From: Candidatus Norongarragalinales archaeon
GTDB lineage: Archaea > Micrarchaeota > Micrarchaeia > Norongarragalinales > Norongarragalinaceae
DNA: 64,000 nucleotides
Assembly (NCBI GenBank): GCA_038884755.1
Contig: JAWABJ010000002.1
Span: 31,157 to 95,156 of the forward strand
Reading direction: 5' to 3'
The translations under genes were made by a program, and so were the position numbers. This document shows positions 5,101-59,598 of the stretch, one piece after another; the stretch's first letter is position 1; the number at the start of each line of letters is the position of its first letter. The notes beneath the pieces are model-generated. The model saw only the letters and a list, made by a program, of their open reading frames with translations, ran no database searches and was not told where the DNA came from.

Positions 5101-5217
5101 GGGCCTGTAGCTCAGTTTGGCAGAGCACTCGGCTCTTAATCTTCCGGGTTTTTAGTGTTGAACCCTTAGAAGCGGGGAGCCACCGAGGAGTCAGGGGTTC
5201 AAATCCCCTCAGGCCCG
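5101..5217 (+). tRNA. tRNA-Lys(CTT) with canonical 37/38 intron (5139-5181, 43 nt)
   Basis: GGGCCTG/CAGGCCC acceptor, CTCGG/CCGAG anticodon stem, TTCAAAT T-loop; BHB with central helix CTCT/GGAG and bulges TAA, CCA. Confidence 0.95.
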
Positions 5218-6313: not shown

Positions 6314-6500
6314 GCGGGGTTGGCAGAGCAGCTATGCGTCCGACTGCAGGCCTGGCTTTTTCTTTAGAAAAGAAAAAGCCCGGTGCGGCAAAAAGAAACA
6401 ATAATTTTTCTTTGGCGCGGTACAACCACACCTTTCTTTTGAGAAAAGAAAGGGGTAAGGCAGCAATCGGAATAGACGAGTGCAACTCTCGTACCCCGCT
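6314..6500 (+). tRNA. tRNA-Cys(GCA) with a 116-nt 37/38 intron (6350-6465)
   Basis: GCGGGGT/ACCCCGC acceptor, U73, TCCGA/TCGGA anticodon stem, spliced loop CTGCAGA, ACGAG-TGCAACT-CTCGT T-arm; central helix CTGC/GCAG with bulges AGG, CAA. Confidence 0.9.
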
Positions 6501-35224: not shown

Positions 35225-35235
35225 TTTTTTTTCCC

Positions 35236-35273
35236 TTTCTTTGATTAAACTTTCTTTGCGAAAGAAAGTTTAA
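35236..35273. repeat. Hairpin element in the tRNA-Arg 3' trailer
   Basis: TTAAACTTTCTTT-GCG-AAAGAAAGTTTAA; 35236-35257 is identical over 22 nt to 59503-59524. Confidence 0.8.
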
Positions 35274-35274
35274 G

Positions 35275-35537
35275 CGGGCCCGCCGGGATTTCCGTTGCCT
35301 TGCCCCTTTCTTTTAGAAAAAAGAACACATGCAGAACTTCGTTCTGCAGTGCCCTTCAGAAGCTTTTGCTTCTGAACGGGAGGTGTGGTGGCACCGCGCC
35401 AAAGAAAACGATTTTTCGTTTTGCGCGCCTCTCCGCCAGGAAGAGGTGTAGAGAGGAGAAACTTCGTTTCTCCTCCTTTCGGACCCGGATCTCAAGCTCC
35501 GCAAGCTCGCATTCTGTCCAGGTTATACTACGGGCCC
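35275..35537 (-). tRNA. tRNA-Arg(GCG) with a 189-nt intron at 59/60 (35289-35477)
   Basis: GGGCCCG/CGGGCCC acceptor, CGAGC-TTGCGGA-GCTTG anticodon arm, spliced T-arm CCGGG-TCCGAAT-CCCGG; central helix TCCG/CGGA with bulges AAA, AAT. Confidence 0.88.
35326..35380. repeat. Double-hairpin module, copy 1 (inside the tRNA-Arg intron)
   Basis: TGCAGAAC-ttc-GTTCTGCA then CCCTTCAGAAGC-tttt-GCTTCTGAACGGG; second copy at 59532-59587. Confidence 0.85.
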
Positions 35538-59502: not shown

Positions 59503-59598
59503 TTTCTTTGATTAAACTTTCTTTTCCTAAACGCTTGCAGAACCTTTGGTTCTGCGGCGCCCTTCAGAAGCTTCGCTTCTGAACGGGAGAAAGTTTAA
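59503..59598. repeat. Hairpin element with nested double-hairpin module (copy 2, 59532-59587) forming the tRNA-Val 5' leader
   Basis: TTAAACTTTCT (59512) pairs with AGAAAGTTTAA (ends 59598), abutting tRNA base 1; shares parts with 35236-35273 and 35326-35380. Confidence 0.85.

Follow-up and report, generated by a model that had tools for sequence, protein, structure and literature searches.

The window analysed here, a stretch of 64,000 nt from Candidatus Norongarragalinales archaeon (genome G000, a 927-kb assembly that is 93% complete), contains two tRNA genes interrupted by long introns, both of which proved to be placed as claimed in the initial annotation. The tRNA-Cys(GCA) gene (6314-6500, + strand) consists of a 5' exon that runs up to G37 (6314..6349), a 116-nt intron at position 37/38 (6350..6465) and a 3' exon (6466..6500). 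The tRNA-Arg(GCG) gene (35274-35537, - strand) consists of a 5' exon that runs up to A59 and carries C55 in the T loop (35478..35537), a 189-nt intron at position 59/60 (35289..35477) and a 3' exon (35274..35288). In silico removal of the introns yields a 71-base tRNA-Cys(GCA) and a 75-base tRNA-Arg(GCG), both of which ARAGORN folds into canonical cloverleafs, and no second exon copy of either tRNA was found in the 927-kb, 93% complete assembly. The two genes thus do not appear to be unspliced pseudogenes with intact copies elsewhere, a concern raised at the outset, but sole copies that become normal tRNAs once the introns are removed.

The perfect 4-bp central helix and 3' bulge expected of a splice junction can be read directly from the sequence of both tRNAs: in tRNA-Cys, C32-C35 pair with GCAG, the last 4 nt of the intron, and in tRNA-Arg, T54-G57 pair with CGGA, within the last 8 nt. 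The intron-side helix of the strict hBHBh' motif is weak in tRNA-Cys and absent in tRNA-Arg; on this reading, the splice motifs are of the relaxed hBH type and not strict BHB. The EndA gene of this genome, located on contig C1, encodes a protein of 388 aa of the epsilon2 type that matches the ARMAN-2 enzyme 4FZ2 over its full length (E = 2e-125), and ARMAN-2 EndA is described as having cut a 59/60 intron with a relaxed hBH motif (PMC3239211). Both introns would accordingly be expected to be spliced by the epsilon2 EndA of the genome. One DNA sequencing run that contains this stretch covers it in short pieces and ends 20 nt into the tRNA-Cys intron; it speaks neither for nor against splicing. 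The non-canonical introns of ARMAN-2, as far as they are covered in the part of PMC3239211 available to us, resemble those described here in the 37/38 and 59/60 sites, the relaxed hBH motif and the EndA type, whereas the introns in the present lineage are 60-190 nt long and are mosaics of repeat modules.

The repeat described below explains why tRNA scanners overlook genes in these genomes: both Rfam and ARAGORN without intron mode miss the tRNA-Cys and tRNA-Arg genes of the window. A relaxed ARAGORN run produced 1202 calls, most of them false, and in a strict run the tRNA-Cys gene was mislabelled as Gly and a false Cys call, which we rejected, was made on contig C5. Several tRNAs of this lineage (Arg GCG, Arg TCT, Ser and Gly) have C in place of U at T-loop position 55 (window 35478-35490 on the - strand, C1 415237, and contig C3). 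Another tRNA gene of the window, tRNA-Lys(CTT) (5101-5217), contains an intron of 43-45 nt that is unrelated to the repeat.

A repeat shared by the two introns

The initial annotation proposed that the two introns share a homologous core (6382-6462 and 35296-35429) and the same series of hairpins. The common core is real, with a local alignment score of 60.5 compared to a mean of 21.4 and a maximum of 38.5 for 500 dinucleotide shuffles; its bounds, however, are to be corrected to 6405-6461 and 35297-35408, to which part of a second unit, its tail, is to be added. The shared core is one copy per intron of a DNA repeat of approximately 55 bases, denoted unit B, and is not an intron RNA. Unit B consists of a T-rich (pyrimidine) arm, a loop, an A-rich (purine) arm, a linker and an A-rich tail that is the mirror image of the purine arm. 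Unit B and the tail of the second unit are common to both introns, but the first hairpins of the tRNA-Cys and tRNA-Arg introns are different modules, so the series of hairpins agrees only in part.

The tRNA-Cys intron is a tail-to-tail doublet that consists of unit A in forward orientation (6354..6398, + strand), a hairpin followed by a mirror purine tail, then a 6-nt spacer, unit B in reverse (6405..6461, - strand) and the final 4 nt; the forward strand of this unit B copy is antisense to the tRNA, with the hairpin foot toward the 3' exon. The tRNA-Arg intron, in the direction of transcription, consists of module C (35439..35476, - strand), a GA-rich hairpin-plus-tail repeat with other copies located between protein genes on C1, the linker and tail of an A-type unit that lacks the hairpin (35413..35432, - strand), unit B (35297..35408) and the final 8 nt. 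The forward strand of unit B here is the + strand of the window, again antisense to the tRNA, and its loop encloses module D, a nested double hairpin of 55 nt (35326..35380, - strand). A free hairpin-plus-tail unit lies directly behind the tRNA-Arg gene (35234..35271, - strand), and a near copy of it trails tRNA-Arg(CCG) on C1. A second copy of module D (59537-59587) is found outside any intron, in the loop of a hairpin that precedes tRNA-Val(TAC) (59514..59596, + strand). The IS200-type end hairpins downstream of tnpA in two loci (L068, L070) likewise have a nested double hairpin in the loop, as module D is nested in unit B, with a different sequence.

Within this genome, the closest relative of the tRNA-Cys intron is not the tRNA-Arg(GCG) intron but the 37/38 intron of a tRNA-Arg(TCT) gene on C1 (80.5% identity over 113 nt), and the last four bases of the tRNA-Cys intron are those with which the 3' exon of this Arg(TCT) gene begins. 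This likeness is suggestive, and only that, of intron copying.

An Rfam search with the window, both introns and four repeat loci returned only sub-threshold chance matches, and no gathering score was reached on either intron. A group I or group II intron or a known ribozyme was rejected given that no covariance model matched. The absence of C/D boxes noted in the initial annotation holds: neither intron contains a C box, and the single CTGA in the tRNA-Arg intron is a chance occurrence; together with the lack of an Rfam match, this led us to reject a C/D-box guide intron of the tRNA-Trp type. The core thus matches no described Rfam family, but its layout, as opposed to its sequence, does match that of the known intrastrand triplex repeats.

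Predicted fold and distribution of unit B

The order of domains that defines a class II intrastrand triplex (a pyrimidine arm, a complementary purine arm and a third purine domain that mirrors it) is present in unit B, which is therefore predicted to be an A-rich representative of this class, to which the BoxC/PIT elements belong; the complementary strand would fit class IV. The A-run on the linker side has the same length in the arm and in the tail in 74 of the 85 distinct combinations of linker and run, with runs of 3 to 6, and the exceptions come mostly from one subfamily in which the linker starts with A. For this genome alone, the mirror and direct-repeat readings yield 42 and 46 matches, respectively, at 7 nt, 31 and 25 at 8 nt, and 23 and 17 at 9 nt. 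The leader and the linker form an extended stem that covaries: the folding energy of 90 matched pairs was -11.2 kcal/mol, compared to -9.7 kcal/mol for re-paired ones, and none of 200 re-pairings was as low. With regard to which strand folds, the evidence points in opposite directions. Of 60 linkers, 41 have T-G on the forward strand in the self-hairpin and none has A-C, but the extended stem favours the reverse strand by 0.9 kcal/mol. For 58 copies aligned with MAFFT, RNAalifold predicted 3 consensus pairs and detected no two-sided change; this alignment is misregistered in the C/T runs and hence uninformative for the main stem.

A search of this genome and its relatives detected unit B in additional introns here and in 26 of the 68 genomes of the order. 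In this genome, BLAST and nhmmer identified further copies in introns of tRNA-Arg(TCT) (two), tRNA-Ser(TGA) and tRNA-Ala(GGC), and parts of the unit in tRNA-Thr(CGT) and tRNA-Ser(CGA). A more general scan for a hairpin followed by a mirror tail gave 42 matches in this genome compared to none in three shuffled versions; on manual reading, 25 of these are in tRNA introns, 8 in tRNA flanks, 4 in 16S rRNA, 23S rRNA and RNase P RNA genes and 4 between protein genes, and one is spurious. The inserts in the rRNA and RNase P RNA genes, which Rfam confirmed as such, are hairpin-plus-tail units in the sense of the transcript (C1, near 670718 in RNase P RNA, 681472 and 682976 in 23S rRNA and 686913 in 16S rRNA; L505-L507).

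Beyond this genome, a strict unit B pattern matched 47 times in 185,579 species genomes; 44 of the matching entries are titled Micrarchaeota or Norongarragalinales, and the remaining 3 are archaea as well. The same pattern produced 42 matches in metagenome contigs and none in viral contigs. A looser pattern, for which the reversed control yielded no matches, is present in the 26 genomes mentioned above, from 5 families, and in 2 of the 4 congeners; many of the 68 genomes are incomplete, so that a miss means not found and not proven absence. The same 19-nt linkers recur in different families, though unit B was not found in two of the four congeners. Sites that are filled here are empty in congeners: the tRNA-Cys gene is without an intron in G003 and has a short unrelated one in G004, and the T loop of the syntenic tRNA-Arg(GCG) gene is intact in G001 and G012; the tRNA-Arg(GCG) gene in locus L104 contains the same unit B with a different 5' arm. 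When tRNA-Arg was sought in five relatives with a 12-base pattern, most of the matches were noise. Repeat-free introns are found in the same tRNA-Arg and tRNA-Cys genes of some relatives (L301 1387-1500, L006, L013, L018), so other sources of introns exist. Free-standing LAGLIDADG-like genes lie beside repeat-bearing tRNA loci in L004 (203-844, with a Pfam match) and L072 (475-1305); these could add homing of such regions.

Insertion sites and duplications at the hairpin foot

We collected 126 contexts of unit B; as some of them are orthologous loci in related genomes, they do not represent independent events. A junction search called introns in 75 of them, 7 of which were dropped on inspection as end duplications. 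The resulting 68 intronic copies comprise 46 at position 59/60 and 22 at 37/38, with 30 in sense orientation (25 in the T loop and 5 in the anticodon loop) and 38 in antisense orientation (21 and 17, respectively); those at 37/38 interrupt tRNAs with 11 anticodons for 8 amino acids. Both positions fall after the sixth base of a 7-base tRNA loop. All six copies in this genome are intronic and antisense to the transcript, hence the single orientation apparent to the initial annotation. Some 13 further contexts, certain of them at other positions, appear intronic by eye and are outside the tally of 68. Unit B also occurs at other tRNA positions (approximately 31/32, and near the D arm) in L191, L193, L163 and L055, likewise outside the tallies. 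In L240 (1-330), close to a contig end, it lies between the 5' half of tRNA-Thr and a T arm and acceptor end that belong to another tRNA, possibly as a product of mixing between paralogues.

Among the 121 contexts with sufficient flanking sequence, 24 contain a direct duplication of 18-69 nt that ends within -2 to +6 nt of the hairpin foot, the second copy lying 0-110 nt beyond the tail (the tail-side spacer). In a cross-pair control, 3 of 600 comparisons passed, all of them between tRNA paralogues. When the same test was applied to the tail end, 9 contexts passed, 8 of which are the same foot duplications with a short spacer. Unit B has one constant end, at the foot of the hairpin, and another, past the tail, that varies. 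At two loci (L151, L179), the pattern occurs in series. What is duplicated is either the end of a tRNA or the opening or closing codons of a gene. We take the affected protein genes to include those for the large subunit of PolD, ProRS (in three genomes), NAC and RtcB.

In 16 coding duplicates, there are 60 synonymous and 15 non-synonymous codon differences, with 5 of the latter resulting from wrongly set frames, and 65 of the 84 base differences are at third codon positions. A dead local duplicate would drift at all codon positions; given the excess of silent changes, both copies are likely to be working gene ends of two lineages, that is, the duplicated coding ends are probably alleles of different origin, judging from their codon differences. 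None of the 40 arms with sufficient flanking sequence in this genome shows a foot duplication, so that the signature comes from the relatives and not from the window. Approximately 17 non-intronic copies of unit B have no duplication. For arms in viral contigs, the duplication was found in 7 of 167 cases compared to 2 of 499 controls; several of these are low-complexity or tandem sequences, and we do not count them as support. Two T-loop copies (L061, L237) end in an exact duplicate of the 7-base loop, possibly an early state that precedes selection for the helix.

Mode of spread and alternative explanations

Given these observations, we consider it rather probable that unit B is a non-coding repeat of approximately 55 bases that resides, in either direction, within tRNA introns and at the ends of genes in one order of Micrarchaeota. 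Its predicted fold is a hairpin held by a third strand, and it would move from lineage to lineage through one-ended recombination, with the conserved neighbour gene as the anchor. Under this model, a donor fragment would end a few bases before the hairpin foot and run through the tail into the adjoining gene, the fixed end being either cut by an enzyme or left where the fold halts nucleases or polymerases. The tail side of the donor would pair with the orthologous or a paralogous gene of the recipient, and the hairpin end would be joined without homology, leaving the recipient's own gene end as a remnant. If the junction comes to lie behind the sixth base of a tRNA loop of 7 nt (37/38 or 59/60) and the final 4-8 bases can pair with the first four bases of the loop, EndA could remove the insert, which would then persist as an intron, often closed by the pairing of two inverted arms. 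Repeated rounds, combined with the nesting of modules A, C and D, would give rise to the long mosaic introns of the window. The genes for tRNAs, rRNAs and housekeeping proteins would be hit most because they are conserved enough to anchor pairing across lineages, and one-ended integration would explain both why tRNA paralogues have trailers in common and how introns come to be copied between tRNAs.

Of the two readings offered in the initial annotation, the one that sees a mobile structured element for which tRNA introns are a safe place is supported, and extended, by the filled and empty orthologous sites within one genus, the many isotypes involved and the gene-end copies with duplications. 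On a broader and more tentative view, which we regard as rather less likely than not, intrastrand-triplex repeats would be minimal selfish DNA without a gene of its own: the fold would set one end of the fragment, and host recombination would insert it beside or within conserved genes, swapping in a foreign gene end. Such repeats would be the engine of tRNA and rRNA intron gain in Micrarchaeota, and the same class would include the A-rich arms of bacterial prophage regions, of contigs that resemble virophages and of a giant virus.

The main rival of the one-ended recombination model differs from it only in what makes the fixed end: the same repeat would be moved in trans by a dedicated enzyme, a DUF559/Vsr-like nuclease or an HUH transposase, encoded by an arm-framed gene in an unsampled genome, with the doublets as non-autonomous derivatives. 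We rate this as somewhat unlikely. The element end is sharp to within 8 nt, and the tail-inward doublets, which start with GCCTTG and end with CAAGGC, resemble the terminal inverted repeats of MITEs, but single arms insert as well and the length of the duplication varies from 18 to 69 nt. G-rich triplex arms are located within 300 bases of a DUF559 gene in all 6 bacterial records fetched out of 42 matches (5 by scan, that of E. coli by eye). A DUF559 gene framed by inverted BoxC-type arms is also found in a bacterial-looking stretch of a Micrarchaeota bin (L127, contig C25 of G022). The neighbours of that gene are presumably shikimate-kinase-like and DprA-like genes, and the stretch is probably contamination or a chimera. 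In contrast, A-rich arms do not frame a gene for a nuclease or transposase in any locus examined. DUF559 is missing from this genome, is present in only 8 of 401 genomes of the phylum (E<=1e-8), and has no arms beside it in the Micrarchaeota matches examined. The Y1 transposase (PF01797) is likewise missing here and is present in 9 of 41 relatives, with ends unlike the units; no Y1 gene among 15 loci is flanked by arms (one locus has a unit 1.2 kb away), and IS200/IS605 ends do not match modules A-D. Reverse transcriptase is encoded in 2 of 41 genomes, not including this one, and no GIY-YIG gene was found here, GIY-YIG matches being mostly long proteins without arms. Among the listed matches for ORFs between or beside arms in 62 loci there is no partner, four bacterial doublets of 300-470 bp contain no convincing ORF, and Pfam analysis of 104 ORFs beside A-rich arms in viral contigs (out of 121, after exclusion of 17 near-duplicates or doubtful frames) revealed no recurring nuclease family.

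The other explanations dispense with transfer between lineages or place the movement or function at the RNA level. It is improbable, in our judgement, that the repeat merely stalls replication and arises or is copied within the genome by slippage and template switching, which would also make the duplications. Such a process is compatible with the in vitro block that PIT elements pose to DNA polymerase and the instability of TM loci, as stated in the part of PMC4666352 available to us, and with certain perfect duplications (L119, L219), the tandem tails in the tRNA-Thr(CGT) and tRNA-Leu(TAA) introns and the single trailer common to three tRNA-Ala paralogues. However, in a dead copy we would expect non-synonymous differences to be at least as numerous as synonymous ones, the opposite of the ratio observed, and the recurrence of the 19-nt linkers across families, combined with the failure to find unit B in two congeners, also argues against purely local origin. 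Still less probable is movement of excised introns by re-ligation into other tRNA loops and copying back by reverse transcription: 37 of the 42 matches in this genome are in stable-RNA genes, and near-whole introns are common to isotypes at the same site (Cys and Arg(TCT); Arg(GCG) and Lys in L086), but both orientations occur, copies located ahead of genes and tRNAs have upstream DNA duplicated, and reverse transcriptase has the sparse distribution given above. The second reading of the initial annotation, an unrecognised ncRNA released as a circular intron, is not supported. That the core is a conserved functional RNA, a stable and perhaps circular intron that possibly forms a U-A-U triple helix in the antisense orientation seen in the window, is very hard to credit: the six copies of this genome are all intronic and have the same orientation to the transcript, and the reverse strand fits the pyrimidine-motif (class IV) triplex that, according to the part of PMC4666352 at hand, RNA can form, but an RNA active after excision should hold one orientation, and unit B does not, with 30 of the 68 intronic copies oppositely oriented and many copies outside RNA genes. 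The absence of unit B from some congeners and the lack of an Rfam match point in the same direction, as does, weakly given the misregistered alignment, the lack of two-sided changes in RNAalifold.

MITEs, REP/REPIN elements with RAYT and ISCR elements with their one-ended transposition are short, non-coding and palindromic, occur as singlets and inverted doublets, and nest, as the present repeat does. Unlike these, unit B has no cognate transposase that we could find and no fixed-length target duplication, and it possesses a third-strand tail. We therefore rejected a MITE (duplications of 18-69 nt, often diverged, and no cognate transposase found; definitions of MITE and REP are given in PMC4666352) and a REP/REPIN with RAYT (no PF01797 in this genome and no arm-flanked Y1 gene among the 15 loci). 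Unit B is closer to BoxC/PIT/TMECO (Holder et al. 2015, PMC4666352), which, in the sections of that paper available to us, share the 5' pyrimidine arm, purine arm and mirror 3' tail, the patchy presence among close relatives, the occurrence as singles and inverted pairs, and unstable flanks. In contrast to these G-rich elements, unit B is A-rich (AAAGAAA), archaeal and equipped with a longer structured linker and a covarying leader, and it is found as introns or inserts within genes for tRNA, rRNA and RNase P RNA; those sections of PMC4666352 mention no polarised duplications with foreign alleles for BoxC/PIT/TMECO. We rejected membership of unit B in BoxC/TMECO itself, with its G/C-rich 9-nt stems and 3-nt second loop as opposed to the A-rich arms and 11-21-nt linker of unit B: it works alike without being a member.

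Transposition of tRNA introns in Thermoproteales was reportedly described by Fujishima et al. in 2010. In the present case, by comparison, the moving unit is a repeat that occurs outside tRNAs as well, in both orientations, and leaves footprints at the junctions. The transposition in Thermoproteales is summarised in PMC4090602 and in an October 2026 preprint on Asgard tRNAs (bioRxiv 10.64898/2026.10.13.758758); in the passages of these sources available to us, the review calls the mechanism by which archaeal tRNA introns arrive unknown and the preprint finds no general route of arrival. In the disruption of tRNA-Thr in Caldiarchaeum (PMC3293823, as far as the available text goes), intron gain and tRNA fragments are similarly ascribed to integration of mobile DNA and recombination, but that element is 1.8 kb long and encodes a recombinase, whereas the repeat described here comprises 55 non-coding bases. 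Homology-facilitated illegitimate recombination (PMC5361080, within the same limits) resembles the proposed mode of spread in the homologous anchor on one side, the non-homologous join on the other and the displaced remnants in series; it differs in that a short structured repeat here sets the non-homologous end and is itself the cargo.

Triplex repeats, relaxed-motif introns and the sharing of introns between tRNAs are already known, each separately. What is new is an A-rich archaeal variant of the triplex repeat, its role, a proposed mode of spread that can be tested and the duplication signature; in the open-access literature, we found no paper on the A-rich repeat, on triplex repeats as intron donors, on the duplication signature or on DUF559 together with triplex repeats, with the proviso that A-rich motifs may appear in the ITxF tables of PMC4666352. 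With a definable 55-base repeat as the intron donor, empty sites, both orientations and readable junctions, the question of intron arrival becomes testable, and the proposed spread would account for the arrival of new introns in archaea. A candidate mode of spread also emerges for the BoxC/PIT triplex repeats, which have long lacked an explanation.

The layout of an A-rich arm, loop, arm and mirror tail is also common in bacterial prophage-like contigs of IMG/VR (L305-L504), where ORF-less tail-inward doublets of 300-470 bases occur as well (L313, L318, L319, L332). The arm layout is further present in one giant-virus assembly, at approximately 15 loci, and directly in front of genes in a contig that encodes an A32 ATPase (L330, L344, L345).
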